A stretch of 64,000 nucleotides of DNA from a virus: IMG/VR virus record IMGVR_UViG_3300045988_101835. One strand, 5' to 3'. This document shows, one piece after another, positions 23,879-61,361 of the stretch. Under the pieces are notes generated by a model. The model ran no database searches, was not told where the DNA came from, and saw only the letters and a list, made by a program, of their open reading frames with translations. The stretch's first letter is position 1. Every line of letters begins with the position of its first letter. The translations under genes were made by a program, and so were the position numbers.

Positions 23879-23966
23879 GGAGAGTTGGCGGAGTTGGTCT
23901 AACGCGCCTGCCTACTAATCAGGTGTCCGGGTTTCCGGGCCGGGAGTTCGAATCTCTCACTCTCCG
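23879..23966 (+). tRNA. tRNA-Ser with unusual anticodon ACU (A34), type II
   Basis: Acceptor GGAGAGT/ACTCTCC with discriminator G. 3-bp D stem. Anticodon stem CCTGC/TCAGG (31-39 C-U mismatch) with loop CTACTAA. Variable arm CCGG-gttt-CCGG. T arm GGGAG-TTCGAAT-CTCTC. Confidence 0.7.
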
Positions 23967-24236
23967 CGCCGAGTTGTTTCCGGTTGTGCTCTGAATTTAA
24001 CTGGCGTCGTTCCCGAACGTATCGGGGGATGGTTGAGGTGATACCATCAGAAATCACCTGCGGGCAGACGCGTATTTGTAGGAGTTGACTTGCGTCTATA
24101 TCAGCAGGCTGCGGTTAAGATGTATGAGTTCACCGCTACGGTTGACTGTATTAAAACTCTATTCATCGGTGCTTGTTAAGCGCGCAATGACAGGCATGAC
24201 GTCCCTATCTGCAGTGGCGTGCGTAGGGCTTTTTAG

Positions 24237-24321
24237 GAAAGTTGGCAGAGTGGTCGATTGCGCTGGTCTAGAAAACCAGTGATCCTTTAGGATTCGGGAG
24301 TTCGAATCTCTCACTTTCCGC
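24237..24321 (+). tRNA. tRNA-Ser with unusual anticodon AGA (A34), type II
   Basis: Acceptor GGAAAGT/ACTTTCC with discriminator G. Perfect anticodon stem CTGGT/ACCAG with loop CTAGAAA. Variable arm ATCC-ttta-GGAT. The T arm is identical to the other Ser tRNA. Confidence 0.75.
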
Positions 24322-24422
24322 CGCCCCTCCGGTTGTTAGACCTAATTGGAAGTCGACTAAGATTAGGTTGAGGCAACAGTTGTCTCACTTGCGTTTGCTT
24401 AAGTGTGGCAATGAGAGGGTCC

Positions 24423-28956: not shown

Positions 28957-31900
28957 ATGGGTGATTTTTATACTCATGTTGTAGCGATCGATGATGATTC
29001 GATTGGTACGGCTCCGGAGTCCACGGGTGTTCGCCGTGTTGGTGACTCTGTTAGTTCGTTCCTGCAGGTGGAGTCGGGTGCTTCGCGTCGTGTTACGGAC
29101 GCGCGTCGTGGTGGTTTCACTGATGGGGAGATTCACAAGGTGGCTTGTAGTCTTTGCAGCATGTCGCGTGGCAGTCGCCGTGCGTCTTTGGCTAAGATGA
29201 GCGCTCCTTTGCGTCGTCGTCTTCTTGCGGAGGGTAAGCGCATTCAGTCTGTTGTTGCGGATTCGTTTATCGAGTACACGCCGGAGGTTTGCTGGGCCAT
29301 CAATGACATTATAGAGAATGACTCGTCTGCGGGTTATGACATCTTGAAGTCTAAGTACCGTTCTTTGCCGCCGGAGGTTAAGACGTTCTATGACGAGTTT
29401 TTGAAGAACCGTTACTCTCCTGCTGCTGTTCGTGCTCAGGAGATGTTGGGTCCTTATCGTCTTGTTCAGGATGACGCTCGTGTGGAGGCATTCCTTGAGG
29501 GTGGTTCTACGCAGGAGGGTGCTTTGGATGAGGTTATCGAGGCGGCTTCTGTTTCTGGCGAGGAGCTGTACGAGACTACTCAGGAGAAACTTGACGAGCT
29601 TGGCGAGCGTGCTCAGTCGGCAGCTATGACTTTCATTGAGGAGGTTTCTAATATCTACGAGGAGGGCATTGCGGATGTTGTTTCGGCCCAGACGTTGGCT
29701 TCCGCCGAGGAGGCTACGGAGGATGTCTTGGAGGCACCTATTCCGGAGGAGGATGTTGATGCCCTTCCTGATCCGAATGTGGATGATACGGATGCCGGAG
29801 CTTCTTCGGAGGTTCAGGATTCTGCCGCGTCTCCGGAGTTTGTTGTTCATGGTACTATTGATCCCGTAGATGATCCCGATTGGGCGTCTAAGAGTAAAGC
29901 TACCAATTGGGATATTGTAGACCTTGCTAGTTACACTCAGCGTCAGGAGTTCTTGGGTTCGCTTGGGAAGAAGGATGCTAAGGGTCGTGATCTTTATGGT
30001 CTTCGTTACTATTCTCCCAATGGTCGCAATTCGAGTGTTGCGGAGTTGATCTTCGAGGATTACTCTCGTTTGCTTGATCGTGCTAAGGCAGCATCATCGT
30101 CTAAGCCTGTTGCCGATGACGTCGATGGCTTGGTGTTGGCTTCGGAGCTTTCCGCTCAGCCGCTGCCTGCTGCTCAGGCGGCTCCAGTTGTTGAGGGTGC
30201 TATGTCGCAGGCTGTTCCGTCCGTTCCGGTTAACGTTGGTACTACGGTTCAGGTTTCGTATTTGGGTAATGTTTATTCGGGTGTCATCACTTCTGTTGGC
30301 AATGGTGTTGCCGTCATCGAGGGTCTTCCTTTTGAGTACTTCTCCTTGCGTCAGGCCGAGGGTGCCTTCACGGGTTCTGATGATGACGTGACTTTCGCCC
30401 TTGCGGATGTCGTTCCGGTTCAGATTGTCGAGGAGACGTCTGTTGCACCTTCGTCGAATGATGCTGACGTTATTATGGCTTCGGAGGATGTTGTTGAGGG
30501 CGATGATGCTCCGATAAGTGCGCCGGAGGAGACTCAGGTTACGGAGGATGAGATTATCGAGGATTCTGCTTCAGAGGAGTCTTCTAAGCTGATGGGTCGC
30601 ATTCTTAATGCCTACTTGGACCGGGGTGCTGCTGACGAGTTCGACGTCTATTTGACGGACGATAAGAGTGGTGGTCCTCGCCTGCATATCGTGTGCGGGG
30701 ATGATTCGCTTCATGCTTCTATTTTCTATCGTGGTAATCGTGGCTGGAATAAGGTTTATACCTTCGAGTCGGATGACGCTGCTATTGAGGCTGTCGAAGA
30801 GCTGACGGACGATGTTCTTGCGAAGCTTCCCGGCGTCATGGCGGAGCCTGTAGATGCTTCTGCTCTGCTGTTCGATAGTGTTCGTGACGATGTCGATCCT
30901 GCTGTTGTTTCGGAGTTCGAGTCTGTCGTGGGTCCTGAGATTCTCAACGACGTTGCTCCGCTTATTCATGTAGTTCATACGACCGAGGATGATGTTGTTC
31001 GACGGAGTGTATGGTCTTCGTTGAAGTCCATTGCGGAGGATATTATTCTGGACTTTGGTGACACTTTGGGTGGGTTGTCTGTAGGTGATATCTTGTCTAT
31101 CTTCAATAGTCACAAGTTTTCTACGCCGTGGGGTGCTGTTGTAGACTCTGCTGTTTCGGATGCTGCCGTTAACTTCACGGTCGATCAAATTATGACGGCT
31201 TTGCGCAATGGGGTTGACATTGCTAATGCGGATGATTCTGTATCTATCGTTTTTGATGATGGTGATGGTCTTGGTGATGTATTCGTATTCACCACGCCGT
31301 CGGGGTCGGTTGTTAAGGATGGCTCCGAGGCTGTTGCTTACTTGTCGGATCATCTTGCTGAGTTTAAGGACGCTATTTCGAATTCCTATGACGATATTTC
31401 AAAGGCTTTGGCTTCTGCGGGGTCCCCTACAGGCGAGGTTCCTGTGGAGGATGCGGAAGGCGATGTTTCTCCTGAAGTTGTGGTTGAAGATGCACCGCAT
31501 GCCGTAGACGAGACTTCCGATCCTGCAGCTATTGACTGGGGTGCTGTGGCTTTGGTTCTGAAGGACTGGGGTCTTGCTAATTGCTTCACTTTGGCTCAGA
31601 CGCCCGATCAGACTCATTTGGTTTCCGCTGCGGAGGCTTTGGCTTCGGCATTGTCTTCGGATACCCGTCTGGAGACTCGTCTTGATGCTTCTGTTCCTCG
31701 TATTCTTTGCAAGGATCAACGGTTTATTGACATCAAGGCCGATGGTGTCTATGTAGGCACTACGTTGTTTGTTTACCAGACTGCCGATGATGCTATTGTT
31801 ACCTTCGCGTCTACCATGTCGAATGCTGCTATTCAGCTTGCTCATAAGATTTACGATGCTACGGCTTCGGATGTTGTTGCTGAGGTTGCGAATGAGTTAT

Positions 31901-32619
31901 CGGAGGAAGAGGAGATCGCTCTGCTGCAGGATTCTTTGGAGACGGTTCGTTCGAAGGCTGATTGGAAGGATCGCCCGTGGGCACAGCATGCATCTTTCCT
32001 CCAGAAGTACCCGCGTCTTCGTATGGTGATTGATGACGAGAGTATCTTGTCGGACGCCGCTAAGCAGGAGGTTCTGCGGTCTATCGAGAACGAGATTTCG
32101 GAGGCTTTGAAGTCTAAGAACATTTTGATTGAGGATTCTGCGTCTCTGGCGATTGATCCGGATAAGGTGAAGGATAGTGCTCCTAACACTTTGGACATTC
32201 CTCATACGGCTTCGACTTATCATCGTGTTCGCAATACCCGGAAGGTTCTGGATTCGGTTCTTTCTGTTGCTTCTGAGATCATGGGCGAGCGCATTAGTGC
32301 CGCTAACTACAAGAGTCTCTGCAAGTCTTCGAGTAAGGCCGCTAAGGCGAAGGTTCAGCGTGTTGTGGATACCGCCGTTGTTATGAACGAGTTGGACTTG
32401 ATTTGTCCTGACTTATACAAGCGCAAGTTAACGGATTCCTATTGGGTTTGCGACAATGCATCGCGTGTTTCGGATTCGTTCAAGCTGAATGCTTCGTTTG
32501 CTGCGGGTCACGGTTGCTTGGTGTCTAATGCTCCGTTGGATGCGGACGTTGTTGCGGACCGGGAGGTTTCGAGCTTCAAGCTCAAGAATGGCTCTGAGCT
32601 TCACGTGGTTTTAGTTTAA
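28957..32619 (+). CDS. Very large acidic protein (1220 aa), function unknown
   Basis: Long uninterrupted ORF with D/E/A/V/S-rich composition. No catalytic motif was recognised. Confidence 0.6.
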   Translation: MGDFYTHVVAIDDDSIGTAPESTGVRRVGDSVSSFLQVESGASRRVTDARRGGFTDGEIHKVACSLCSMSRGSRRASLAKMSAPLRRRLLAEGKRIQSVVADSFIEYTPEVCWAINDIIENDSSAGYDILKSKYRSLPPEVKTFYDEFLKNRYSPAAVRAQEMLGPYRLVQDDARVEAFLEGGSTQEGALDEVIEAASVSGEELYETTQEKLDELGERAQSAAMTFIEEVSNIYEEGIADVVSAQTLASAEEATEDVLEAPIPEEDVDALPDPNVDDTDAGASSEVQDSAASPEFVVHGTIDPVDDPDWASKSKATNWDIVDLASYTQRQEFLGSLGKKDAKGRDLYGLRYYSPNGRNSSVAELIFEDYSRLLDRAKAASSSKPVADDVDGLVLASELSAQPLPAAQAAPVVEGAMSQAVPSVPVNVGTTVQVSYLGNVYSGVITSVGNGVAVIEGLPFEYFSLRQAEGAFTGSDDDVTFALADVVPVQIVEETSVAPSSNDADVIMASEDVVEGDDAPISAPEETQVTEDEIIEDSASEESSKLMGRILNAYLDRGAADEFDVYLTDDKSGGPRLHIVCGDDSLHASIFYRGNRGWNKVYTFESDDAAIEAVEELTDDVLAKLPGVMAEPVDASALLFDSVRDDVDPAVVSEFESVVGPEILNDVAPLIHVVHTTEDDVVRRSVWSSLKSIAEDIILDFGDTLGGLSVGDILSIFNSHKFSTPWGAVVDSAVSDAAVNFTVDQIMTALRNGVDIANADDSVSIVFDDGDGLGDVFVFTTPSGSVVKDGSEAVAYLSDHLAEFKDAISNSYDDISKALASAGSPTGEVPVEDAEGDVSPEVVVEDAPHAVDETSDPAAIDWGAVALVLKDWGLANCFTLAQTPDQTHLVSAAEALASALSSDTRLETRLDASVPRILCKDQRFIDIKADGVYVGTTLFVYQTADDAIVTFASTMSNAAIQLAHKIYDATASDVVAEVANELSEEEEIALLQDSLETVRSKADWKDRPWAQHASFLQKYPRLRMVIDDESILSDAAKQEVLRSIENEISEALKSKNILIEDSASLAIDPDKVKDSAPNTLDIPHTASTYHRVRNTRKVLDSVLSVASEIMGERISAANYKSLCKSSSKAAKAKVQRVVDTAVVMNELDLICPDLYKRKLTDSYWVCDNASRVSDSFKLNASFAAGHGCLVSNAPLDADVVADREVSSFKLKNGSELHVVLV

Positions 32620-33787: not shown

Positions 33788-35779
33788 ATGTTGTGGGGCA
33801 CTTTTAATGGGTACAAGGTTGGCTTGGTTCAGAGTCTGTCGGATTTGGATTACATCCGGGCAGATTTGCATGCCAATATAGTGGCTGGTTTGGATTCGGA
33901 GACGACGAGCTTATCTTTTGTTCACGGTCGAGTGGTAGGGGTATGTATCGCTACGGGTAAGACTTACAGCAAGGATGACTACTGTGGTTATTACATTCCG
34001 ATTCGTCATGTGGGCTATCACGCCAATCTTCCGGTTGACCTTGTTATTGCTTTCGTGCAGTATGTCGTCGATAATTATATGACGATGTGGTGGAACCGGA
34101 GTTTCGACTTTTCTATGTTGGAGCTTGACGGGTTCAAGGCACCTTTTGTTGGTAAGACTCATGACGTCCAGTTCATGGCGCATGAGATTTTCAATGAGCG
34201 TTATCCTAAGCTGAAGGTCTTTGCTAAGCGTCTTTTTGGGTTTAAGACTATCGACTTCGAGGATAATAATGCGGTTAATGGTAACTTCGGCTCACTCGAC
34301 CCGGAGGTCTCTTTCATCTATGCTGCTGCCGACCCTCTCATCACGACACTGTGTGGTCTCCGTATTTGGAGTGACTATCCTCATATTCGTCAAATTTACC
34401 CGCTGGATAACGAGTCCGGTGAGGCTGTTCGTCGCTTGGCTAAGGCGGATATCCTTCTTGATTATGATTTCTTGGATCAGGAGGTCATTCGCACTTCTGC
34501 CCGCATGGAGGATGTCCGGCAGCGTATCTATCAGCTTGTGGGCTACGTTTTCAACATCAGTAGTGAGGATGACAAGGCGGATGCCTTGAGCCGCTTTGTC
34601 ACGTTGACGGTCCGTACTAAGAGTGGCAAGTTCAAGACGGATAAGAATGTCTTGGCGACGATAGATCATCCGTTAGCTAAGCTTATGCTGGAGTATAATG
34701 CCTTGAGCACTTACTTGAAGTCTTTCGTTTCCAAGATGGTTTCGTGGCGTCATCGTCAGATTCCGGTTCATATTAATTATAACCTTGTCGTGGCGTTGAC
34801 GGGTCGTATGAGTAGCTCCGGGTCGGAGGGTAATGACTTCTACGTTCCTTTTAATGGCCAGAACTGTGTTCGTGGTTCTAATACTACAGTTTTCACTCGT
34901 TCCGGGTCCAAGTTGATTTCGGAGGTTGTTGTTGGTGACGAGGTTTGGGATGGCGATGCTTTTCGGCGCGTGTCTGCGGTTTTGGATCAGGGTGTGCGTG
35001 AGATTTACCGTTTGACTTTGGAGGATGGTCGTTTCTTGGACGCGACATCAGATCACCCGGTTCTCACGGCTTCGGGGTTCCACGAGGTTTCTACGTTACT
35101 CGGGGTCGATGTTTTGGTGAGTGAGAACCCTCATGTTTTCCTGACTGGTGTAGATTGTGGTCCCGCTAGGTACTTATGTAGGGTTGTGTCGATCCACCCT
35201 ATTGGCTATGATCGTGTTTATGACATTACGGTCGATGTATCAGAGCGTTTTGTGGCCAACGGTATTATAGTTCATAATTGCCCGAAGGTTTCTTTGAAGA
35301 TGTATTTGCATACAGATCCTCTTATAGGCTACTGTTTGAAGCATGAGGCGGAGGGTGCTGTGTGTGATGAGTCGGGCAAGCCTATTAAGTATAAGACGAA
35401 GGGAGGACTTCGTGATGCCTTCTTGGCCAACCCGCCGGGGGAGGATGACTGGGTAATGGTTGGCAACGATTATTGTATTCATCCGGATACATTAGTATCG
35501 ACACCTTCGGGAGATGTTCGAATAGGTGATATGGTTGGTTGTGAGTTCGAGGTTTCTACGCCTTATGGTCCTTGCGTTGCTTCTAATGTTCACCATACTG
35601 GTCGTCGCAAGCAGTATCGTATAGAGTTGTCGGACGGTGCGGTTCTGGTTTGCTCTCCAGATCATCGTTTGTGGGTGTGTCGTGATGACGTAGATATGTG
35701 GGTTAAGGCTTCTGAGCTTTTGAGTAGTGATTATATTTACACTCAGTCTGATGTTACTTATCCGGAGATTGTGAGCTAG
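33788..35779 (+). CDS. Family-A DNA polymerase, N-terminal gene (exo domain, palm start, intein 1, IntN of split intein)
   Basis: GLDSETTSL (ExoI), ALTGRMSSS and FNGQN (PNLQN-like), ..VGNDY (motif A Asp). Ends at TAG 35777-35779 inside intein 2. Confidence 0.85.
   Translation: MLWGTFNGYKVGLVQSLSDLDYIRADLHANIVAGLDSETTSLSFVHGRVVGVCIATGKTYSKDDYCGYYIPIRHVGYHANLPVDLVIAFVQYVVDNYMTMWWNRSFDFSMLELDGFKAPFVGKTHDVQFMAHEIFNERYPKLKVFAKRLFGFKTIDFEDNNAVNGNFGSLDPEVSFIYAAADPLITTLCGLRIWSDYPHIRQIYPLDNESGEAVRRLAKADILLDYDFLDQEVIRTSARMEDVRQRIYQLVGYVFNISSEDDKADALSRFVTLTVRTKSGKFKTDKNVLATIDHPLAKLMLEYNALSTYLKSFVSKMVSWRHRQIPVHINYNLVVALTGRMSSSGSEGNDFYVPFNGQNCVRGSNTTVFTRSGSKLISEVVVGDEVWDGDAFRRVSAVLDQGVREIYRLTLEDGRFLDATSDHPVLTASGFHEVSTLLGVDVLVSENPHVFLTGVDCGPARYLCRVVSIHPIGYDRVYDITVDVSERFVANGIIVHNCPKVSLKMYLHTDPLIGYCLKHEAEGAVCDESGKPIKYKTKGGLRDAFLANPPGEDDWVMVGNDYCIHPDTLVSTPSGDVRIGDMVGCEFEVSTPYGPCVASNVHHTGRRKQYRIELSDGAVLVCSPDHRLWVCRDDVDMWVKASELLSSDYIYTQSDVTYPEIVS
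34865..35278 (+). mobile_element. Mini-intein 1 (138 aa) in the PNLQN|IP-like motif
   Basis: Starts CVRGSNTTVFTRSGSKLISEVVVGDEV. Block B is TSDHPVL. Ends FVANGIIVHN followed by C. Confidence 0.8.
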
Positions 35780-35899
35780 TGTATGGGACGCGCTTCTAAT
35801 ATAAAATCCATTTCGGTATTACAGGATGAAGTTGACATGATTGACTTCTCTGTTGCGGGTGCTCATTGCTACTATGCCAATGGTATGTTGGTCCATAAC
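35474..35899 (+). mobile_element. Split intein 2 in motif A (IntN 35474-35776, TAG, TGT, IntC 35783-35899)
   Basis: IntN (101 aa) starts CIHPDTLVSTPSGDVRIGDMV and contains SPDHRLW. IntC (39 aa) is MGRASNIKSISVLQDEVDMIDFSVAGAHCYYANGMLVHN, followed by C. Confidence 0.7.
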
Positions 35900-38707
35900 T
35901 GCTCTGAGGAAATCGCCCTTGTAGCTAACATGTCCCGTGAGGAGGGTTTCTTGTATCCGCTGCGTCATGATCTCGATGTCCATATGTACGTTGCGGAGAC
36001 GCGCTTCCATGTTTCGGACCCTGAGTTTCGTGATAAGTCTAAAGCTGTCTCGTTCGGTAAGATTTACGGTGGTGGTCCTACGATGATCGCTAACCGACTT
36101 GGTATTTCGAAGCAGGAGGCCAATAAGATCATCTATGACTACGATACGGGTATGCCTGTTTTTGCTAGGTGGCAGAAGGCTTTGCAGAAGCAGGCAAAAC
36201 GTACGGGTTTTGCTAAGACGTTCTTTGGGCGCACTATTTACTTGGCTCGGTGGTTTAATTCTCCGGATAACGGATTGCGCGCTTATGCTGACCGAGTTGC
36301 TCTCAACAGTCCAATTCAGGGTCCCACGCCCCCTAACACTCTGATTTTGACCACTTTAGGCTATGTTCCTATTAAGCATTTATATACCTTAGATGTTGCA
36401 GGGCAGCTTGCTCCATATGGTGTTAAGTGTTGGAATGGTGTTCGATGGTGCGATTTTCATGTTGTTGATGCGGGGTTAGGTGATATCCTTCGTTTTAAGT
36501 TCAAGCGTGGCAACTATGTTGACGTTGACGTTCGCCATCAGTTTAAGGTTTGGACTTCGGATGGGTGTGTTTTTGAGGATGCTACTAAGTTGTCGGTTGG
36601 GGATCGTGTTGCGGGGTCTTTGTGCCGTCGCCTTGAGTTCCCGGCACTGACGTTCTGTTGTTCTTCACAGTCGCGGTTGAAGGGTCTGCTTATCTCTCAT
36701 TCTCCCCGTACCCTTTCCTACGAGGATAGCGTGACTTTGATGTGGTGGGTCGGTTATGCTTTAGGTGATGGTAACTTTAGTACGCCTAATGCTATTCGGT
36801 TTACATTAGGGGCTACGGAGACTTTCCGGTATGACGATGCTTCGGCTTTCTTTCCGTCTATTGGTTGTACGGTTGGTAAGTTGAATCATTGTACGGCAGA
36901 TATGCCGGGGCGTAAGGGTGAGTGTTACACGTTCGTTGTGTATGGTGTCGATGTTATGCGGTGCTTGCGGCGCTTGGGTCTTGATTTTCGTTGGCGTCAT
37001 CACACTAAGCGCATTCCGTGGCGACTGTGTTGTTCGTCTATTGCCCAGCGCAAGGCTTTGGTTGATGGATTGTTTGCTTCAGATGGCTGTAAGACAGAGG
37101 AACAGTTCATGTGGCATATGTGCCAGTCGGACATTCTTCGTGACTTGCAGCGGTTGCTTCGGACTTTAGGGTTTGATAGTACTTTGTATGCTGCGCCAGA
37201 TGGTAAGTCCTATCGCTTGGTTGTGTGTGCGACTCAGGATTTCGCTCGGTTTATGGGTTATCCTTTGAAGGAGCAAGCGGGTCGTATTGGTCCGGGTCGC
37301 TGGAATGATCGTCGGATGGTTCCGTCGGTTTTGTGCCAGCGGTTTGTCTCTTGGCAGCAATCGCACGGAGGTCCGTCGCCTGATCTGCCCTCTAAGCGTC
37401 GCCAGTCGGATATGGCATTAATGAGTCGCCTTCGTCATGGTGGTTCTGTTTCGTTTTCGACTTTCGAGAGCTTGGCTTCGGATTATGGCTATACGGAGTA
37501 TCAGACGTGGGATGACTATCTGGAGGCTCAGGAGATCGTTGATATTGTTTCTTTGCCGCCGGAGAACTGCTATTGCCTTTCGTTGGATGATGAAAGCCAT
37601 TGCTACGACACGGATGGTCTTATTTCTCATAATTGTTTACCTCGGTCCTTGTATTCGCCGTCGCAGGATGGTAAGGTTTATTCTCCGTGGCAGTCGTTCG
37701 TCGGCCACCGTATGACTTTCCAGACTCGGTCGGACGGCGCACGTGTTGGCGTTCCTACGTTCCGGGGTGAGCACGACCTTCATGTTGCTTTGTTCGATAC
37801 GGGTGACTTCTGTGTTTGCAATCTGGGTCATAAGTTCGTTAAGTATGGTACGGATCGCGTCTTGCTTGGTTTGGATGAGATAGGTACTGCGCCTGTTGCT
37901 TTGATTCCGCCTATGCGCAAGAGTAAGTGGGGCTGGTTGAAGGGCTTGTTTAGTAGCCATAAGTGGACTTTGGAGTCGCTTCTTGCGCATGGTAAGATGG
38001 GCCGTGACATCCGCACGGACGATTGGGCTGTCTGCTGGTGTATGCTGAAGGCATTTATGACGCGAAAACGGGTCCATACGCGGTCGATGTTATCCGCAAT
38101 GATCCTACGGTCCATCTGCGATCTTTTCGGCTGGAATTTGGTCTACGATTTGCGCCATTCGGTTGTTGATGATTATGCTTTCAAGTTACGGTGGGGTCGT
38201 CGGCGTAAGGGTCACGCTATTTTCGCCACGGAACTTGGAATTCGGGATAACGTTATTTCTCCGTCCATGTCTTCGGGCCTTCAGACTTACCCGTTGTGTG
38301 GCTTCATTCATAAGAACACGGGTGGTGACTTGATTCGCCGTGACTTGGTTAAGTTCGAGCGTTTGAATGATCTGCTCCCGGAGTGGCGTGAGAACGTCCG
38401 CTTCGTGGTTACGGTTCACGATGAGGTCCAGTTCCGTGTTCGCCGTAAGTATTTGTTCAAGGCTATTCCTATCATCCAGAAGGTCATGAACTTCTGGCCT
38501 AAGAATTTTGAGACTCCGGTTGTTGTTGAGCCGGGTGTTGGTTTCCGCTGGGGCGGTGAGCTTGATATTGACGCTGTTCTGGATGACGGTCGTATTGTTC
38601 CTAAAGGTTACATGCCGCCGCCGGAGTACTTCGAGGGCCACGAGGTCTATTGGCTTCGTTCGTGGAAGGAGGAAGAGGAGAAGAAGCGTGGTTTGTCTAA
38701 GAAGTGA
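35783..38707 (+). CDS. Family-A DNA polymerase, C-terminal gene (IntC, motifs A-C, inteins 3 and 4)
   Basis: CSEEIALVANMS (rest of motif A), KAVSFGKIYGGG (motif B), NSPIQG / TGGDLIRR, VTVHDEVQF (motif C). Same frame as the N-terminal gene. Confidence 0.85.
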   Translation: MGRASNIKSISVLQDEVDMIDFSVAGAHCYYANGMLVHNCSEEIALVANMSREEGFLYPLRHDLDVHMYVAETRFHVSDPEFRDKSKAVSFGKIYGGGPTMIANRLGISKQEANKIIYDYDTGMPVFARWQKALQKQAKRTGFAKTFFGRTIYLARWFNSPDNGLRAYADRVALNSPIQGPTPPNTLILTTLGYVPIKHLYTLDVAGQLAPYGVKCWNGVRWCDFHVVDAGLGDILRFKFKRGNYVDVDVRHQFKVWTSDGCVFEDATKLSVGDRVAGSLCRRLEFPALTFCCSSQSRLKGLLISHSPRTLSYEDSVTLMWWVGYALGDGNFSTPNAIRFTLGATETFRYDDASAFFPSIGCTVGKLNHCTADMPGRKGECYTFVVYGVDVMRCLRRLGLDFRWRHHTKRIPWRLCCSSIAQRKALVDGLFASDGCKTEEQFMWHMCQSDILRDLQRLLRTLGFDSTLYAAPDGKSYRLVVCATQDFARFMGYPLKEQAGRIGPGRWNDRRMVPSVLCQRFVSWQQSHGGPSPDLPSKRRQSDMALMSRLRHGGSVSFSTFESLASDYGYTEYQTWDDYLEAQEIVDIVSLPPENCYCLSLDDESHCYDTDGLISHNCLPRSLYSPSQDGKVYSPWQSFVGHRMTFQTRSDGARVGVPTFRGEHDLHVALFDTGDFCVCNLGHKFVKYGTDRVLLGLDEIGTAPVALIPPMRKSKWGWLKGLFSSHKWTLESLLAHGKMGRDIRTDDWAVCWCMLKAFMTRKRVHTRSMLSAMILRSICDLFGWNLVYDLRHSVVDDYAFKLRWGRRRKGHAIFATELGIRDNVISPSMSSGLQTYPLCGFIHKNTGGDLIRRDLVKFERLNDLLPEWRENVRFVVTVHDEVQFRVRRKYLFKAIPIIQKVMNFWPKNFETPVVVEPGVGFRWGGELDIDAVLDDGRIVPKGYMPPPEYFEGHEVYWLRSWKEEEEKKRGLSKK
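36323..37633 (+). mobile_element. Intein 3 (437 aa) with LAGLIDADG homing endonuclease; Pro at position 1
   Basis: Inserted after PIQG. Block A-like PTPPNTLILTTLGYVPIKHL, block B VDVRHQF. LAGLIDADG motifs WVGYALGDGNF and LVDGLFASDG. Block F CYCLSL, ending DGLISHN followed by C. Confidence 0.65.
37634..38317 (+). mobile_element. Intein 4 (228 aa) directly abutting intein 3
   Basis: Starts CLPRSLYSPSQDGKVYSPW. Block B is CNLGHKFV. Degenerate LAGLIDADG-like GWLKGLFSS. Ends CGFIHKN followed by T of the extein TGGDLI. Confidence 0.55.
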
Positions 38708-39471: not shown

Positions 39472-40729
39472 GGTAATCATATACAATTTTATTCTGCCGT
39501 TTGTAATAGACGTAAAATAATTATAACTTGCAGCCATGAAGAAGACATTCAAATATCGCATCTACCCGAACAAAGCCCAGCAGGCTTTGTTACAGGCGAC
39601 GTTTGGATGCTGCCGCTTCGTTTACAACAAAACGCTTGATATTAGGAAGACGGCTTACGAGACCGACAAGATGAAGCTTAGTAAGTTCGATTGCATCAAT
39701 CGGATGACTGCGTTGAAGGATGAGTATACGTGGTTGCGTGCCGTTCCTGCGGTTTGCTTGGTTCAGGCTGTTGACAACATGGATACAGCCTACCAAAACT
39801 TCTTCAAATCTGGTAAAGGTTATCCGAAGTTTAAGTCGAAGCATCGTAGCCGTAAGTCCTGTAAGTTTATGGTGCCTAAGTGTGTTGTATTGCAAGATAT
39901 TAGTCGTTTAAAGCTTTCTAAGTTAGGGTTAGTCAAGTACAAGAAAGACCGGGAGTTCGTTGGCGCTTTGCGTCACATTGTGGTTACACAAGAAAACGAT
40001 GGTAAGTACTACGCGTCGTGCTTGGTGGAGACGGGCGTTGAAGCACCTAAGCCAAAGCCCGTTGATGATAGCACAACGGTCGGCATTGACTTGGGGCTGA
40101 AAGACTTTATCGTCACGTCCGACGGGCGCAAGATACCTAACCCGCGCTTTTATGCTACTATTGACCGACGCATAGCTAGGTTACAGAAGCATGAAGCACG
40201 AAAGACGAAAGGCTCGAAGCGTCGTGCCCGCATTCGCTTAAAGATTAACAAACTTTATATCAAGAAGCAAAACTTAATTAAGAATTATATTTACCATGCC
40301 GTCAAGACGTTACTGCGTGAGAGTCAAACGATAGTAATGGAGAATCTTAATGTTGGCGGCATGGTTAAGAATCATAGTTTAGCTAAATCCATACAGAACA
40401 TTTGCTGGGGTGAACTTCGCAGAGTGTTAGAGTATAAGTCTCAATGGCTTGGTCATAACCTTATTTTCATAGATCGTTGGGCACCGAGTACGAAGACTTG
40501 TAGTTGTTGCGGCTTTAAGAATGATATATTAACACTTTCAGATCGTTCGTGGACATGTCCGGGTTGTGGTACGCATCACGACAGAGATGTTAACGCTGCC
40601 CTCAACATTAAGCGTATGGGTTTAGAAAAGTTATTGCCTACGGTGAGTGGGTTCGACGGACGTGGAGAGATCGGTTACGATCTCGACGAAGCGTCAATAT
40701 GTGCAAGTTATTAATTGTATATAATCACC
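39472..40729 (+). mobile_element. TnpB-only IS element, copy 2 (about 1258 bp)
   Basis: Left end GGTAATCATATACAATTTT matches the reverse complement of the right end, GGTGATTATATACAATTAA, at about 16 of 18 positions. It sits between a terminator and an early promoter. Confidence 0.7.
39536..40714 (+). CDS. tnpB: TnpB (RuvC-type RNA-guided nuclease)
   Basis: 392 aa with the same motif set as copy 1 (VGIDLG, VMENLN, CSCCGF..CPGCG, HDRDVNAALN). Confidence 0.9.
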   Translation: MKKTFKYRIYPNKAQQALLQATFGCCRFVYNKTLDIRKTAYETDKMKLSKFDCINRMTALKDEYTWLRAVPAVCLVQAVDNMDTAYQNFFKSGKGYPKFKSKHRSRKSCKFMVPKCVVLQDISRLKLSKLGLVKYKKDREFVGALRHIVVTQENDGKYYASCLVETGVEAPKPKPVDDSTTVGIDLGLKDFIVTSDGRKIPNPRFYATIDRRIARLQKHEARKTKGSKRRARIRLKINKLYIKKQNLIKNYIYHAVKTLLRESQTIVMENLNVGGMVKNHSLAKSIQNICWGELRRVLEYKSQWLGHNLIFIDRWAPSTKTCSCCGFKNDILTLSDRSWTCPGCGTHHDRDVNAALNIKRMGLEKLLPTVSGFDGRGEIGYDLDEASICASY

Positions 40730-46098: not shown

Positions 46099-46113
46099 TA
46101 TAAATTGCATTCG

Positions 46114-47952
46114 ATGTCTTCGGTTAGGGTTGTAAGTATTCCGTCTGACGGTGGTATTTCGTTAGCTGCATCTCATAGTTACACCGCTGATTTTCCGTGG
46201 GAGGATGACAGCGGTCAGTATGTTCGTATGGGTGCAGACTCTAATACGGGTCCTGTTTCTACTGCTGATTTCTGGTCGGACGAGAATCTTTCGGGTAAGC
46301 GTCGGTCTATGCTTATCGACCTCTGTGCTGGCGGTTCGTCTTCCGTTTATCGGACACGTGTTAAGGTCACTCAGGATTCCGCTTACCTTAGTGCGGACGT
46401 TGCTTCCTACACGCTTCCTGCAGAGGCGGGGTCTTCTGTTGATCTTTCGTTCACCTCTACGGTTTCGTCCCTAGGTATCATTACGATTGAGAGTTCGGAT
46501 ACGTCTTTGTATACTGTTTCTAACCGTCGTCAGGGTGGTCGTGTTGTGACGGTTACGGTTACGGCGGTTAAGTCGTGGTCTTCGACTACGACTACGGGTA
46601 ATGCTGCTGTTATTACGGCGAGTGTTCATGGTGTTGGGGGTAAGGTTACGCTTTCTGCTGTGACGTACGTTCGTCAGGCTCCGAGTACGTTCCGGGGGTA
46701 TGTGGGTGTTTCGTCTTCGGTCAATTCCTATACGTCTTCTAGCTTCAGCTTTGATCAGCAGAGCACATCGAGTCCTGTTGAGGTTCCGGTTTCTATTTCG
46801 GAGGGTAGCACGTGTAGCTATGTTTTTAATTCTGTCTCTATTGTCGAGCAGTGGGGCGACGGTGAGAAGCTTGTTCCTATTTCTAGCTTTGCTTCTCGTA
46901 TTACCCTTTCGGCTTATGGTCCTTTTACGGACTTCCAGTCGCCTACGACGTCTGTATCTTTGGTTGGTGATGATATCCATACTACATGGAACTCTTTGGA
47001 CTTGACTTCCAATGCAGCTCCGTCGGTTTCGGGCTACGTTGTTGTAGCCGTTTCTTTGGATGACAAGTTGCTTGGCACACTTCGGTCCTTTGAGTTTACG
47101 CGAAGTGCTAATCGTCCTGTTTCTACCTATGGGGCTTTAGCTTACCGTCTTCGTTACTCGCAGGCGGGGGTTATCGCTTCGGAGTTATCCGCGGAGGCTA
47201 CTACCACTAGCAATGATGGTGGCAATCCTCAGTATTTCGAGTTCTACCGTCCTGAGACGGTAACCTATACTTCGGGTACGGTTTTGACCCGCGACGCTCT
47301 TGTTGCTATGGACCCGTCTAAGGGTGGCGCTGTGTCTTTGAGTTCCGACATGCTGAAGGATGGTTATACTACGTTCCGCTCTGCAGGTGCTTCTGTTCCT
47401 TATTCGCAGTGGGACGTATGGAATCCGGATCGGACACCGTTCATAGGCCCTCGTTATTACGAGTCAGGTCTTACGGCGATTGCTCCGGGGGGTGCTGCTA
47501 TTTCGGGTTCCGCTCGTAACTTGACACGTGCTGCGGGGTTGTTTTCGAGTACGGTTCCTTACTCGGTTTACTTTGTTTTTGGTCGCTGGCCGTCGGATGT
47601 TCCTACGTCTACACAGTTGGACGTTTATTATAAGTTAACCTCCTCGGATGACTCTGCGACTACGGATTACGTTTATCTTCAGTCCATTTTTTTGGGCGTC
47701 CAGCCGGGTTCGGATAATTACTGGGTTTCTATTCCGGGAGGTCCTACGTCGTTGTTGATTCAGGCGTTGTCTTCTACGCAGCTTGGCTCTCGCCCTGTGC
47801 AGTATGGGGACGCTATAGGCTTCAACTTGCGTCTGTTTGGTCAGGATCATGGTTTCTTTTCGGGTACGGGCAGTAACTATCCGTGGAAGTTAATCCAGCA
47901 CGATGGGGTTGGTTCTAGCTTGTCTAATCCGTTCTATATGATTTATGAGTAG
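46114..47952 (+). CDS. Structural protein with BACON-like N-terminal domain (paralog A)
   Basis: IPSDGGISLAASHSYTADFPWEDDSGQYV...NLSGKRRSMLIDL...VKVTQ. Paralogous to the next gene. Confidence 0.55.
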   Translation: MSSVRVVSIPSDGGISLAASHSYTADFPWEDDSGQYVRMGADSNTGPVSTADFWSDENLSGKRRSMLIDLCAGGSSSVYRTRVKVTQDSAYLSADVASYTLPAEAGSSVDLSFTSTVSSLGIITIESSDTSLYTVSNRRQGGRVVTVTVTAVKSWSSTTTTGNAAVITASVHGVGGKVTLSAVTYVRQAPSTFRGYVGVSSSVNSYTSSSFSFDQQSTSSPVEVPVSISEGSTCSYVFNSVSIVEQWGDGEKLVPISSFASRITLSAYGPFTDFQSPTTSVSLVGDDIHTTWNSLDLTSNAAPSVSGYVVVAVSLDDKLLGTLRSFEFTRSANRPVSTYGALAYRLRYSQAGVIASELSAEATTTSNDGGNPQYFEFYRPETVTYTSGTVLTRDALVAMDPSKGGAVSLSSDMLKDGYTTFRSAGASVPYSQWDVWNPDRTPFIGPRYYESGLTAIAPGGAAISGSARNLTRAAGLFSSTVPYSVYFVFGRWPSDVPTSTQLDVYYKLTSSDDSATTDYVYLQSIFLGVQPGSDNYWVSIPGGPTSLLIQALSSTQLGSRPVQYGDAIGFNLRLFGQDHGFFSGTGSNYPWKLIQHDGVGSSLSNPFYMIYE

Positions 47953-49765
47953 GCAAAAAATAAAAGGCTTGACTCCGGTTGTTCCGGGTTCTGCTTCAGT
48001 TTCGATGCTGGATGTTCCGTCGGAGGGCGGTTCTTTTCCGGTGTCGGGGTTGTCTTCGGATTCGGATGTTGTGACTTATGCTGCGGGTTCCTATCCGTGG
48101 GAGGATGGTAGTGGTCAGAGTGTTACTGTTACTCCGTCTTCGGGTGTTGGGAGTATTAGTGACGTTGTGATTTCTGTTCCTGAGAATTTCACGTCGCGTT
48201 CCCGCCGGATGGAGTTGGACTTTACTTTGGATATGGACCCTACGAAGCAGGTTACGGTTTACTTGTCTCAGTCTTACGCTTCGTTTTACGCGGAGTCTGC
48301 GGAGGTTATTGCTCCTACGGCTGCTGGGTCTCCGTTCCGTGTTTACTTTGTGACGTCTGCGTCTTCTATTGCTGCTGGGGGTTCTGTTTCGGGTGGGTCT
48401 AAGGATGAGAGTCTTTATACTTACTATAACTCTGGTATTGATCCGGATAATCCCAAGCGCATGTGGGTTGAGTTCCTTACTGTGCAGTCATGGAATTCGA
48501 GTACTCCGGGTAATACGGCTACTTTGTACGCTAGGTTTGGCTTACTGCAGGCCACGGTTTCGGTTTCCCAGCAGGCAGACTCTGTAGTGTCCTATACGGG
48601 CTTGGGTTGCACTACGATCTCTGTTACGTCTGAGTCTGGGAATGTTGAGGTTCTGGATGCTCCTTATACGGGTGTTGGTGCTATTAATATTCCTATTACT
48701 GCTGCCGAGACTATCACGCAGACTTTCGATGACGCTTACTTGATAGCTTTGTATTCGTCGGGTCGTGAGGATCATGTCCCCTTGTCGTCGCTTAGTGCTT
48801 CGCGCTTACGTGTTGAGTTCGCGGGGTCTTCGGAGTGGTCTTCTTATCTTGAGGACAGCAGTGCTTCTGTTGTCAATAGTAAGTTGACCTATTCTTTCTC
48901 TACTACTTATGCGGGTTCGGAGCTTCGTCCGTCTACGAGTGGCTCTGTTTCAATTCGTGTCTACTATAACGATCAGGCCGTCGGTACTTTGTCGAGTCGT
49001 GTCTTTGAGTTGCCTGCTAATGAGAAGTCGGAGTTGGTTTACACGTCTATTGCCGCCGATCCATTGTCTTTGTATTATCTTGACGCGCCAGTTTACGCAG
49101 GTATCGTTGCCACATACAGGGAGGAGTATACCTCTGGTGCCGCTAATAGTGGTCGTACACGGTTTACGTCGCCCTCGGATATTACGGTTACGCAGCAGCC
49201 TTATGCGTCTGGGTTCTACACTTTGGGGTCTAATGCCTCCGGGTATTATGTTTCCTTTGCCACCCCCAATGATTTAGGAGGAGCTATTTACTATCGGGAT
49301 TCGGGACTTGCAGGTTTGGACATGAAGTTTATTCCTACGGGAGGTACGACTACTTGTGCTGTGGCTTATGTGGGTCGCGGCTTTGCGGATTCGGGGACTT
49401 TGTACTTCAAGGTTAATAAGTCGGAGTGGACTTCGTCGAGTTCGCTTCCTGTAGGTCAGTTGTATTTAGACTGGACTGTGCCGTCGGGTCCTTCTTTAAA
49501 TTCGGACTGCGGGGTGACGACATCGGCTTCGGGTCCAGATTCGTCTTACTTTTACTTTTCCATTCCGTGCGGCAGTTACTCTAAGATGGCTAATAGTCTT
49601 TCTTTTGGTTGGGATGAAGGTGTTGTTTACAACTGGGGTCAGAGCGGTGTTTTCCGTCTTGAGATTAGCGGGGCTAACGCTGCTGCTTTCAAGAGCTTTA
49701 GCTTTAATGCCGCTTATGGTACCTACGGCACTCCGGAGGATGCTTGTTTGATGACACGAGTTTAG
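47945..49765 (+). CDS. Structural protein with BACON-like N-terminal domain (paralog B)
   Basis: VPSEGGSFPVSGLSSDSDVVTYAAGSYPWEDGSGQSV...NFTSRSRRMELDF. 8-nt overlap with paralog A. Confidence 0.55.
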   Translation: MSRQKIKGLTPVVPGSASVSMLDVPSEGGSFPVSGLSSDSDVVTYAAGSYPWEDGSGQSVTVTPSSGVGSISDVVISVPENFTSRSRRMELDFTLDMDPTKQVTVYLSQSYASFYAESAEVIAPTAAGSPFRVYFVTSASSIAAGGSVSGGSKDESLYTYYNSGIDPDNPKRMWVEFLTVQSWNSSTPGNTATLYARFGLLQATVSVSQQADSVVSYTGLGCTTISVTSESGNVEVLDAPYTGVGAINIPITAAETITQTFDDAYLIALYSSGREDHVPLSSLSASRLRVEFAGSSEWSSYLEDSSASVVNSKLTYSFSTTYAGSELRPSTSGSVSIRVYYNDQAVGTLSSRVFELPANEKSELVYTSIAADPLSLYYLDAPVYAGIVATYREEYTSGAANSGRTRFTSPSDITVTQQPYASGFYTLGSNASGYYVSFATPNDLGGAIYYRDSGLAGLDMKFIPTGGTTTCAVAYVGRGFADSGTLYFKVNKSEWTSSSSLPVGQLYLDWTVPSGPSLNSDCGVTTSASGPDSSYFYFSIPCGSYSKMANSLSFGWDEGVVYNWGQSGVFRLEISGANAAAFKSFSFNAAYGTYGTPEDACLMTRV

Positions 49766-49770
49766 TTTTA

Positions 49771-51026
49771 GGTAATTATTTACTTTTTCATTTTCATTTG
49801 CAATAAATGTAAAATAATTGTAACTTGCAGTCGTGAAGAAGGCATTTAAATATCGCATTTATCCGAACAAGGCCCAGCAGGCTTTGTTGCAGGCGACGTT
49901 TGGGTGCTGTCGCTTCGTGTATAATAAAACGCTAGACATCAGGAAGACGACGTATGAGAGGGATAAGACGCAGCTTAGCAAGTTTGACTTAACCAAGAAG
50001 ATACCGCTGCTTAAAGAAGAGTTTCCGTGGTTGCGCGACGTTCCGGCGGTATGCTTGCCGCAAGCAGTCGGCGATATGGATGATGCCTATCAGAAGTTCT
50101 TTAAGTCCGGTAATGGTTATCCTAAGTTTAAGACGAAGCATCGCAGCCGTAAGTCTTGTCGTTTTCCGGGCCAGAGTTGTGCGGTATTGCAAGACATTAG
50201 TCGTTTAAAGTTTCATAAGTTAGGCTTAGTCAAGTATAAGAAGGATCGTGAGTTCGTCGGTACTTTACGTCACATTGTGGTTACACAGGAAAGTGACGGT
50301 AAGTACTACGCTTCGTGTGTAGTAGAGACGGGTGTCGAAGCACCTAAGCCACAATCCGCAGAAGCTAGTACGACGGTCGGTATTGACTTAGGACTCAAAG
50401 ACTTTATCGTTACGTCGGACGGACGCAAGATAGCTAACCCGCGGTTCTACGCTACTATTGACCGTCGTATAGCTCGGTTGCAGAAGCACGAAGTTAGAAA
50501 GACGAAAGGGTCTAAGCGTCGTGCACGCATCCGATTGAAAATTAACAAACTTTATGTTAAGAAACGCAACTTAATCAAAAATTATATTTACCATGTTGCC
50601 AAGACGTTACTGCGTGAAAGCCAAACGTTAGTAATGGAAAATCTCAATATTGTCGGCATGGTTAAGAATCATAGTTTAGCTAAATCCATCCAGAATATTT
50701 GTTGGGGTGAACTGCGTAGAGTGTTGGAGTACAAGTCTCAATGGCTTGGCCACAATCTCATCCTCATAGATCGTTGGGCACCGAGTACGAAGACTTGTAG
50801 TTGTTGCGGTTTCCACAATTCTATGTTGACGCTTTCAGATCGTTCGTGGGTTTGTCCGGGTTGCGGTACGCATCACGACAGAGACGTCAATGCTGCGATT
50901 AATATTAAGCGTATGGGTTTAGAGTCATTATTGCCTGCGGTGGGCGGGTTTGACGGACGTGGAGAGGTTGGTTACAACTTCGACGAGGCGTCAATATGTA
51001 CAGTGTAGAAATTGTATGCATTCACC
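49771..51026 (+). mobile_element. TnpB-only IS element, copy 3 (about 1256 bp, most diverged ends)
   Basis: Left end GGTAATTATTTAC..., right end ..AATTGTATGCATTCACC. It begins 5 nt after the stop of the upstream structural gene. Confidence 0.65.
49833..51008 (+). CDS. tnpB: TnpB (GTG start, altered C-terminal residues ..ASICTV)
   Basis: 391 aa. The RuvC D/E/D residues and zinc ribbon are intact. Confidence 0.85.
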   Translation: MKKAFKYRIYPNKAQQALLQATFGCCRFVYNKTLDIRKTTYERDKTQLSKFDLTKKIPLLKEEFPWLRDVPAVCLPQAVGDMDDAYQKFFKSGNGYPKFKTKHRSRKSCRFPGQSCAVLQDISRLKFHKLGLVKYKKDREFVGTLRHIVVTQESDGKYYASCVVETGVEAPKPQSAEASTTVGIDLGLKDFIVTSDGRKIANPRFYATIDRRIARLQKHEVRKTKGSKRRARIRLKINKLYVKKRNLIKNYIYHVAKTLLRESQTLVMENLNIVGMVKNHSLAKSIQNICWGELRRVLEYKSQWLGHNLILIDRWAPSTKTCSCCGFHNSMLTLSDRSWVCPGCGTHHDRDVNAAINIKRMGLESLLPAVGGFDGRGEVGYNFDEASICTV

Positions 51027-60103: not shown

Positions 60104-61361
60104 GGTGATTATATGCAACTTTATATCATCGTTTGCAGTAAATGTAAAATAATTGTAATTTTCAGACATGAAGAAAGCATTCAAATATCGCATCTACCCG
60201 AACAAGGCTCAGCGGGCTTTGTTTCAGGCGACGTTTGGATGTTGCCGTTTCGTTTACAACAAAACGCTTGATATCAGAAAGACAGCTTATGCGATGGATA
60301 AGACGCAGCTTAGCGAGTTTGATCTCATCAAGAAAATAAAGCCGCTTAAAGAAGAGTTCCCGTGGCTGCGTGACGTTCCAGCGGTTTGCTTACCTCAAGC
60401 AGTTGGTGATATGAATGATGCTTTCCGTGATTTCTTTAAGTCGGGTAAGGGTTACCCTAAGTTCAAGACGAAGCATCGTAGTCGGAAGTCTTGTCGTTTT
60501 CCCGGCCAGAGTTGTGCAGTGTTGCAAGACATTAGTCGCTTAAAGCTTCCCAAGCTTGGTTTAGTTAAGTACAAGAAAGATCGTGAGTTCATTGGCACTT
60601 TACGGCATATAGTGATTACGCAAGAAAGTAATGGCAAGTATTATGCTTCGTGCTTGGTTGATACGGGCGTCGAAGCACCGAATCCGAAGCCAGTAGAAGC
60701 TAGTACGACGGTCGGCATTGACTTGGGGCTTAAAGACTTTATCGTCACGTCGGATGGGTGTAAGATGCCCAATCCACGTTTTTATGTTACTATCGACCAC
60801 TCCATCGCCCGCTTGCAGAAGCACGAAGCGCGGAAGATGAAAGGATCGAAGCGTCGTGCGCGCATTCGGTTAAAGATTAACAAACTTTACAGTAAGAAAC
60901 GGAATTTAATCAAGAATTATATTTATCATGTCGTCAAGACATTACTGCGCGAAAGCCAAACGCTAGTAATGGAGAACCTTAACATTGTTGGCATGGTAAA
61001 GAATCATAGTTTAGCTAAATCCATCCAGAATGTTTGCTGGGGTGAGCTTCGCAGAGTACTGGAGTACAAGTCGCAGTGGTTGGGTCACAACTTAATCTTC
61101 ATAGATAGGTGGGCGCCTAGTACGAAGACTTGCAGCCATTGCGGGTTCCATAATTCTACGTTAACGCTTTCAGATCGTTCATGGACATGTCCGGGGTGTG
61201 GTACACATCACGACCGGGACATCAACGCCGCGATTAACATTAAACGTATGGGTTTAGAGACATTACTGCCCGCGGTGAGCGGGTTCGACGGGCGTGGAGA
61301 GGTCGGTTACGGTCTCGACGAAGCGTCAATATGTGCAAGTTATTAACTGCATGTAATCACC
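60104..61361 (+). mobile_element. TnpB-only IS element, copy 4 (about 1258 bp) flanked by direct repeat TCCCAA
   Basis: Left end GGTGATTATATGCAAC matches the reverse complement of the right end, GGTGATTACATGCAGT. TCCCAA occurs at 60098-60103 and at 61362-61367. Confidence 0.7.
60168..61346 (+). CDS. tnpB: TnpB (RuvC-type RNA-guided nuclease)
   Basis: 392 aa. VGIDLG, VMENLN, CSHCGF..CPGCG and HDRDINAAIN are all intact. Confidence 0.9.
   Translation: MKKAFKYRIYPNKAQRALFQATFGCCRFVYNKTLDIRKTAYAMDKTQLSEFDLIKKIKPLKEEFPWLRDVPAVCLPQAVGDMNDAFRDFFKSGKGYPKFKTKHRSRKSCRFPGQSCAVLQDISRLKLPKLGLVKYKKDREFIGTLRHIVITQESNGKYYASCLVDTGVEAPNPKPVEASTTVGIDLGLKDFIVTSDGCKMPNPRFYVTIDHSIARLQKHEARKMKGSKRRARIRLKINKLYSKKRNLIKNYIYHVVKTLLRESQTLVMENLNIVGMVKNHSLAKSIQNVCWGELRRVLEYKSQWLGHNLIFIDRWAPSTKTCSHCGFHNSTLTLSDRSWTCPGCGTHHDRDINAAINIKRMGLETLLPAVSGFDGRGEVGYGLDEASICASY

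Follow-up and report, generated by a model that had tools for sequence, protein, structure and literature searches.

A probable natural split intein at motif A of a family A DNA polymerase in an uncultivated phage

The viral sequence IMGVR_UViG_3300045988_101835 from IMG/VR, analysed over its 64,000 nucleotides (nt) and called the window below, carries a DNA polymerase gene that is interrupted inside an intein by a stop codon, with a new start codon almost immediately behind it. This raises the question of whether the two halves of the gene are translated separately and joined as proteins, or whether the stop is read through, the halves cooperate without being ligated, the gene is decaying, or the stop is simply an error. 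The phage is uncultivated and its relatives were assembled from human gut metagenomes. Our analysis of the locus and its relatives suggests, with a probability of roughly 0.8, that the window holds a natural split intein in a family A DNA polymerase, whose two polypeptides are joined by trans-splicing, and that the locus is a fractured gene that has lost its endonuclease.

The interrupted gene and its close relatives

The polymerase is encoded by two open reading frames (ORFs) of 663 and 974 amino acids (aa) in one shared frame, and the junction between them reads ...CCG GAG ATT GTG AGC TAG TGT ATG GGA CGC GCT TCT AAT.... The first ORF comprises, in this order, a 3'-5' exonuclease region, the N-terminal polymerase extein, a cis mini-intein (intein 1), a stretch of extein ending in ...VGNDY, and the N-terminal fragment of the split intein (IntN), which runs up to the TAG. 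The Pfam model for the exonuclease, DNA_pol_A_exo1, is sub-threshold in this ORF (E 0.0098, 16.2 bits vs a cutoff of 23.6). The second ORF opens with the C-terminal intein fragment (IntC) and continues with the remainder of motif A, motif B (KAVSFGKIYGG), two more insertions and motif C (VHDE); the host gene carries four insertions in total. The Pfam domain Intein_splicing was found both where the first ORF ends and, with a weaker match, where the second begins.

When the extein was spliced conceptually, it could be aligned along its length (E 3e-30) with the Pol I enzymes Bst, Klenow and Taq; motifs A, B and C are all present, and the host gene is a family A DNA polymerase. In this alignment vgnDY/Cseeialvanms (a slash marks a splice junction in protein sequences) stands opposite faaDYSQIELRVLAHIA, and therefore the insertion lies between the Tyr and the Ser of motif A, beside the catalytic Asp. 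The initial annotation, made from the sequence alone, had described two same-frame ORFs with only TAG and one codon between them, a 101-aa IntN and a 39-aa IntC with its own Met, an insertion point in motif A of PolA at DY/C, and a break at the canonical split-intein site. The coordinates, the exact sizes of the fragments and the position in motif A were all recovered here, and the break coincides in alignment with the point at which the gp41-1 intein is split and falls in the one weak loop of the structural model described below. In addition, a word-indexed protein search with the fused intein as query returned a single short relative, P0001, whose gene call independently begins at the same Met as IntC.

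Protein-guided scans of IMG/VR and of metagenome contigs identified close relatives of the locus at 94-98% identity. Five independent assemblies from different samples (L004-L008), one of them labelled human gut metagenome, have an identical TAG-TGT-ATG junction, exactly tctgatgttacttatccggagattgtgagcTAGTGTATGGGACGC, and vary from the window at other positions of the intein. Because the junction is identical in five independent assemblies, it is not an error. The idea that the TAG is a sequencing or assembly artefact, which the initial annotation had named as a possible refutation and for which we found nothing specific in favour, is refuted by these assemblies and by the same TAG codon in a further relative, L001, and we leave it practically no weight. 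A megablast search of the gene against GenBank phages gave no match, and tblastn found only distant Pol I genes (about 25% identity) that were uninformative on the intein. The metagenome loci L011-L017 were also considered as relatives and were set aside, since their inteins lie in other host genes.

Four relatives (L002, L003, L009 and L010) have one continuous polymerase gene without the split intein, with the protein sequence ...VGNDY/ASEEIALV...; the intein-free site reads ...GGCAACGACTAT/GCGTCCGAGGAA.... These alleles fix the exact extein junction and indicate that Cys+1 accompanies the intein. A survey of related genomes for intein-free or contiguous alleles, as the initial annotation had proposed, returned both kinds, the contiguous ones in P0007, P0027, P0035 and L021-L023. 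Comparison of positions 35900-35920 of the window with positions 7273-7293 of L002 revealed 8 nucleotide differences in the first 21 nt of the C-extein, which is denser than farther from the junction. This cluster hints at co-conversion or at immunity of the endonuclease site, with which it is compatible, although the numbers are small and too weak to use.

The relative L001 (97% identical) shares IntN, its terminal TAG codon and IntC with the window, and 615 nt separate its two halves. In the frame of IntN this spacer contains 13 stops (5 TAG, 4 TGA and 4 TAA), and since all three kinds of stop are represented, no stop-codon reassignment joins the halves and they are translated separately there. 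A 110-aa ORF in another frame of the spacer carries the motif LLGLLDSDGW and matches PHROG 4645, 'endonuclease', only at positions 200-302 of 308 (E 1.5e-7); the Pfam model LAGLIDADG_3 is below threshold. Its TAA end overlaps the ATG of IntC by 17 nt, and it aligns with the C-terminal domain of the endonucleases found in the distant relatives L024 and L025. These matches identify the spacer ORF as the decayed remnant of a LAGLIDADG homing endonuclease with two domains, of which the C-terminal half is left.

Alignment of the DNA showed that the window differs from L001 by the lack of one 612-nt block, which in L001 is bordered by TAGT and GTATGGG. The sequence GTATGGG, which in L001 forms the end of the endonuclease ORF and its overlap with IntC, is still present in the window, and this is most simply explained by deletion of the endonuclease in the window lineage and not by its insertion in L001.

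The splicing domain and the expression of its halves

The Pfam model Intein_splicing spans both parts of the fused IntN and IntC (E 2.3e-12, 47.4 bits, cutoff 35.8). No exception to Cys1, the block B His or the terminal Asn occurs in a family alignment of 35 sequences, in which the penultimate His is also almost always present, and the C-terminal junction, ...MLVHN/C, presents His-Asn followed by Cys+1. An AlphaFold model of the fused halves, computed from a 16-sequence alignment, reached a mean predicted local distance difference test score (pLDDT) of 92.4 and a predicted template modelling score (pTM) of 0.86; its sole weak stretch, residues 91-110, is the loop that separates block B from block F and contains the break. 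A single-sequence run gave a pLDDT of 36 and was uninformative. Every one of the 50 matches that Foldseek listed in the PDB is an intein or a related autoprocessing domain of the Hint type. Sequence and model thus support the assignment of the element as a class 1 intein with a HINT fold, in which every catalytic block is kept.

The ratio of nonsynonymous to synonymous substitution rates (dN/dS) of IntN plus IntC among alleles of the window lineage is 0.08-0.23 (dS 0.2-0.39), and that of the flanking extein, measured against the intein-free allele, is 0.04 (dS 0.21). These values indicate that both intein halves are under purifying selection, and together with the conservation of the splicing residues the intein ratio argues for trans-splicing. 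They also bear on the view that the polymerase gene is decaying or inactive, either through a nonsense mutation in the intein or as a variant of a defective phage, which might be suspected from four insertions and a stop in one gene and from genomes that are metagenome assemblies of uncertain viability. Such low ratios in extein and intein at a dS of about 0.2, intact polymerase motifs A, B and C, and the presence of the same arrangement in six assemblies and in further lineages that are 30-55% identical make decay very unlikely.

The conserved residues are equally relevant to the proposal that the separate halves function without a peptide bond, held together by dimerisation of the intein fragments. 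There is a precedent, in that a phage NrdA fragmented by a mobile element is reported to assemble through interaction domains derived from that element (PMC3045599). In the present case, however, Cys1, the block B His, the penultimate His, the terminal Asn and Cys+1 are all retained and conserved, and the +1 residue is Cys only with the intein and Ala without it, as expected if a nucleophile is needed. In addition, a 140-aa domain within motif A, beside the catalytic Asp, would be hard to fit in an active polymerase, and complementation of this kind seems to us decidedly improbable.

For the split intein that we favour, we infer that translation of the two halves is coupled, that they associate with each other and that they then splice. 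One message would give two polypeptides, the N-extein with IntN (663 aa, stopping at the TAG) and IntC with the C-extein (974 aa), and translation of the second would most likely begin at the ATG at 35783, 4 nt downstream of the stop, by termination-reinitiation coupling. No Shine-Dalgarno motif was seen at the genes of the window, most of which overlap or lie 0-15 nt apart, and therefore the C-half is probably started by ribosomes terminating at the TAG; a second TAG-nnn-ATG junction occurs in the window at 41154/41160. IntN and IntC would then associate into one HINT fold and follow the class 1 steps, in which an acyl shift at Cys1 is followed by transfer to Cys+1, then by cyclisation of the terminal Asn and finally by an S-to-N shift. 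The ligation would join ...VGNDY to CSEEIALV..., with the junction peptide VGNDYCSEEIALVANMSR, and rebuild motif A beside the catalytic Asp. Since motif A is where the halves meet, neither of them is expected to be active as a polymerase until splicing has taken place, and the mature enzyme would also require the removal of intein 1 (34865-35278) and of the insertions in the C-half.

Variation at the site and neighbouring features

An exhaustive HMMER search with IntN against 1.84 billion representatives gave 203 hits at E <= 1e-3, and the best 150 of these were re-scored locally. Among these 150, 27 cluster representatives have the D[YF]/C polymerase context; of the 27, 3 are contiguous and 24 terminate no more than a few residues away from the split position. 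Their hosts are clearly diverse family A polymerases, and the same split arrangement is present in lineages only 30-55% identical. To judge from these matches, the arrangement is that of a widespread metagenomic family, and the window is not unique in having it.

The relatives examined as DNA differ in what separates the halves. In L019 (IntN about 53% identical) there is a TAG and then 3 codons before the ATG, and in L020 a TAA and about 26 stop-free codons. L024 and L025 contain intact free-standing endonuclease genes between the halves, of 295 aa and 265 aa, which overlap the start of IntC by 32 nt and 8 nt, respectively, and match Pfam LAGLIDADG_3 (33-41 bits vs a cutoff of 22.5) and PHROG 4645 (E 1e-21 to 3e-26); the halves of L025 are in different frames. 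At this site the inteins of L021, L022 and L023 are contiguous and contain larger inserts, which in L022 include an in-frame LAGLIDADG domain. As for the origin of the junction, we propose that a free-standing LAGLIDADG gene once lay between the halves, that it stayed intact in the distant lineages and decayed in L001, and that it was cleanly deleted in the window. The deletion would have left the stop, 3 nt and the start codon that the endonuclease gene formerly overlapped.

Several points weigh against the two-polypeptide model. The AlphaFold model was made from the fused sequence and not from two chains. The window fragments have charges of -7 (IntN) and -2 (IntC) and show no charge complementarity, as compared with +3 to +8 and -6 to -9 in L020, L024 and L025, and therefore their association may be weaker or use other contacts. 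The start of IntC lacks a recognisable ribosome-binding motif, as do the starts of most window genes. Moreover, IntN and IntC of the window share one frame with a single TAG and one codon between them, the relatives were found in human gut metagenomes, TAG is reassigned in some crAss-like phages of the gut (PMC7886860), and the search for a suppressor tRNA covered 64 kb of the genome.

Given the in-frame halves and the reassignment known from some gut crAss-like phages, read-through deserves attention. If the TAG were read through or reassigned, for example to Gln, the product would be a contiguous mini-intein, ...EIVS-X-C-MGRAS..., that splices in cis, and the split would be only apparent. 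The TAG followed by 3 codons in L019, the contiguous mini-inteins at the same site in P0007 and P0027, and the tolerance of the loop for insertions seen in L022 would agree with this. However, the 13 in-frame stops of L001 are of all three kinds, the stop of L020 is TAA, and the halves of L025 lie in different frames. A Met begins the IntC homology in every split lineage examined as DNA (L001, L019, L020, L024 and L025), whereas the contiguous P0007 and P0027 have none at that position. TAG is also the commonest terminator in the window, where it ends 20 of the 41 long ORFs; no more than 6 TAG sites are bordered on each side by a long open frame, approximately the one-third expected by chance, and no CUA, UCA or UUA anticodon occurs among the four tRNAs of the 64-kb window. 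Finally, the recoding described in crAss-like phages affects mostly late genes and not replication genes (PMC7886860). On this evidence we regard read-through as an unlikely explanation of the junction, and separate translation of the two halves as the preferred one.

Comparison of the window, L001, L019, L020, L024 and L025 showed that IntN and IntC share a frame in 4 of 5 lineages, although separate halves need not do so (binomial P of about 0.045). The shared frame could be a relic of the origin of the arrangement or a hint of occasional read-through. A broader reading, which we offer tentatively and hold to be rather doubtful as a whole, is that the motif A site of phage family A polymerases hosts a large family of natural split inteins that had gone undescribed and is mobilised by free-standing endonucleases of the LAGLIDADG type, a type for which there is no report from fractured genes, and that the in-frame 3-nt stop/start junction of alleles without the endonuclease is perhaps kept to serve expression. 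Such a junction could provide stoichiometric coupling, or a dual mode in which trans-splicing is combined with occasional read-through and cis-splicing. If this were true, polymerase activity would depend on post-translational ligation in either mode, and the family would supply new orthogonal Cys1/Cys+1 split inteins for protein engineering.

The polymerase halves contain other insertions as well (Table 1). Intein 1 is an element distinct from the split intein; like the split intein, it is missing in L002 and L003, which read NGQN/CPKV, and a homologue is present at the same NGQN/C site in P0007. The first insertion of the C-half starts with Pro (PTPPNTLILT...; PAAPNT in relatives) and not with Cys or Ser, and has Cys at the usual Asp of block F (CYCLSL). 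Class 3 inteins have no N-terminal nucleophile, and by inspection the insertion resembles this class. The 228-aa segment that follows abuts it with no extein residue between them and has intein-like termini (Cys1, terminal Asn, Thr+1), and it gave no Pfam or PDB sequence match. In P0007 and L019 a homologue of this segment is found alone at the same QG/T site. If both insertions were inteins they would stand in tandem, with Cys1 of the second serving the first as its +1 nucleophile.

Elsewhere in the window, four tRNA genes form a cluster, Leu(UAA), Leu(CAA), Ser(ACU) and Ser(AGA), all with a long variable arm. Both tRNA-Ser genes have A at position 34, which is unusual outside tRNA-Arg(ACG). 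The possibility that the tRNA-Ser with anticodon ACU is a hidden CUA amber suppressor was rejected, since according to the Rfam tRNA model its loop, CUACUAA, has the normal 7 nt. Four ORFs of 391-392 aa share near-identical upstream sequence (c/tgtaaaataattgtaac/att...), and the copy at 39536 is a TnpB gene, because it has the domains HTH_OrfB_IS605, OrfB_IS605 and Cas12f1-like TNB. This copy is present in L001 and missing in the intein-free L002 and L003. Several very large ORFs, among the ten scanned, gave no PHROG match at E <= 1e-5, and the lineage was not placed from them; one encodes a 1220-aa acidic protein directly upstream of the polymerase region.

Table 1. Coordinates of the split polymerase locus and of other features in the window
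Feature	Position	Strand	Basis or remarks
Polymerase N-half gene	33788..35779	+	ORF list; Pfam DNA_pol_A E 6e-14, Intein_splicing E 6e-18
Intein 1, contiguous 138-aa mini-intein (NGQN/CVRGS...IVHN/CPKV)	34865..35278	+	Pfam Intein_splicing E 9e-12
IntN, 101 aa (CIHPDTLV...YPEIVS)	35474..35776	+	Residues 563-663 of ORF1; Cys1, block B S-P-D-H
TAG stop ending the N-half	35777..35779	+	Identical in L004-L008; same codon TAG in L001
3-nt spacer TGT	35780..35782	+	Right edge of the 612-nt indel vs L001 (DNA alignment)
Polymerase C-half gene	35783..38707	+	ORF list; Pfam DNA_pol_A E 1.7e-33; Bst Pol I alignment
IntC, 39 aa (MGRASNIK...MLVHN)	35783..35899	+	Residues 1-39 of ORF2; own ATG, blocks F and G, ends His-Asn
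Cys+1 (TGC), first C-extein residue	35900..35902	+	Predicted trans-thioesterification nucleophile; Ala (GCG) in intein-free alleles
C-half insertion after NSPIQG, 437 aa	36323-37633	+	LAGLIDADG_3 domain E 9e-10; ends ...LISHN
C-half segment, 228 aa (CLPRSLYS...CGFIHKN/TGGD)	37634-38317	+	
tRNA-Ser, anticodon ACU	23879-23967	+	Loop CUACUAA
tRNA-Ser, anticodon AGA	24236-24322	+	Loop CUAGAAA
391-392-aa ORF	1569-2747	+	
391-392-aa ORF, TnpB	39536-40714	+	
391-392-aa ORF	49833-51008	+	
391-392-aa ORF	60168-61346	+	
Large ORF	28957-32619	+	No PHROG match
Large ORF	3606-6050		No PHROG match
Large ORF	11546-14278		No PHROG match
Large ORF	14285-16246		No PHROG match
Large ORF	46105-47952		No PHROG match
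Large ORF	47945-49765		No PHROG match

Comparison with fractured genes and known split inteins

The closest published arrangement is that of the fractured genes described by Dassa, London, Stoddard and Pietrokovski in 2009, in which the halves of a split intein flank a free-standing endonuclease gene whose 3' end overlaps the start of IntC (PMC2677866). As in those loci, a phage replication gene is broken here at the endonuclease-insertion loop of an intein, the halves are adjacent on one strand, and in relatives the 3' end of the endonuclease gene overlaps the start of IntC, by 8-32 nt as compared with 6-69 bp in the published loci (PMC2677866). The host and the endonuclease are different. 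The known hosts are gp41, IMPDH, DnaE, NrdA, NrdJ, ligase and terminase, with endonucleases that are GIY-YIG or Vsr-like (PMC2677866), whereas the gene studied here is a family A polymerase, broken at motif A, and its relatives have LAGLIDADG endonucleases. The published model also includes, as its step III, the gp41-7 locus, which lacks an endonuclease and was proposed as a step toward unlinked halves (PMC2677866). Like gp41-7, the window has kept the split and lost the endonuclease, there being no endonuclease gene in its 3-nt gap; unlike in gp41-7, the loss was clean enough to leave no more than 3 nt from stop to start. From this comparison the window allele is a fractured gene without endonuclease, in the derived state of step III.

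Among individual split inteins, gp41-1 (PDB 6qaz, 6riz), which is also of phage origin, is the best PDB sequence match (E 2e-8, about 27% identity). An alignment with known split inteins had been suggested at the outset, and in that with gp41-1 the two split points coincide. Foldseek with the fused model gave a structural match to gp41-1 with a template modelling (TM) score of 0.84 and a root-mean-square deviation of 2.8 A at 27% identity, and in both inteins IntN has about 88-101 aa and IntC about 37-39 aa. The host of gp41-1 is a helicase, unlike that of the window intein, and the window halves differ from it in the lack of charge complementarity. The C-extein nucleophile is Ser in gp41-1 and Cys in the window.

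The DnaE inteins of Ssp and Npu are likewise natural class 1 split inteins of a replicative polymerase, with Cys1 and Cys+1, halves of similar size and a fold matched by Foldseek (4kl5, 1zde). The halves of the cyanobacterial DnaE intein have about 102 and 36 aa, and the close agreement in size (101 and 39 aa in the window) that the initial annotation had pointed out was borne out, the likeness being limited to size and mechanism. There is no close sequence relationship between the two inteins. DnaE is the Pol III alpha subunit, encoded without an endonuclease by two genes that are far apart in a cellular genome, whereas the halves of the PolA gene in the window are 3 nt apart.

The contiguous inteins at the same PolA site (P0007, P0027, P0035 and L021-L023) are inserted at the same D[YF]/C point and have homologous splicing domains, 33-38% identical. 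They differ in that each lies within one continuous polypeptide and has a short linker or a domain in frame at the point that is occupied in the window by a stop, a spacer and a start. One survey mentions DNA polymerase I of bacteria as a host of contiguous inteins (PMC4760082). The initial annotation knew of no split intein at the PolA site, and in agreement with this we found no report of one in the literature searched, which is absence of evidence only, since most subscription journals were outside its coverage. The host gene and the site are apparently new, and the arrangement itself fits the published fractured-gene model; the locus is therefore less novel than first judged.

To our knowledge natural split inteins are few, and some of them (DnaE, gp41-1 and NrdJ-1) are the workhorses of protein ligation technology; the locus and its relatives add a split-intein family at a new host gene and site. 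A phage replicative polymerase would probably need assembly from two polypeptides after translation, and annotation pipelines would call it as two truncated polymerase genes. The relatives, moreover, form a series of homologous stages at one site, namely intein-free, contiguous mini-intein, contiguous intein with an in-frame endonuclease, and split intein with an intact, a decayed or a removed endonuclease, of which the last three are the states proposed by the gene-breaking model of 2009.

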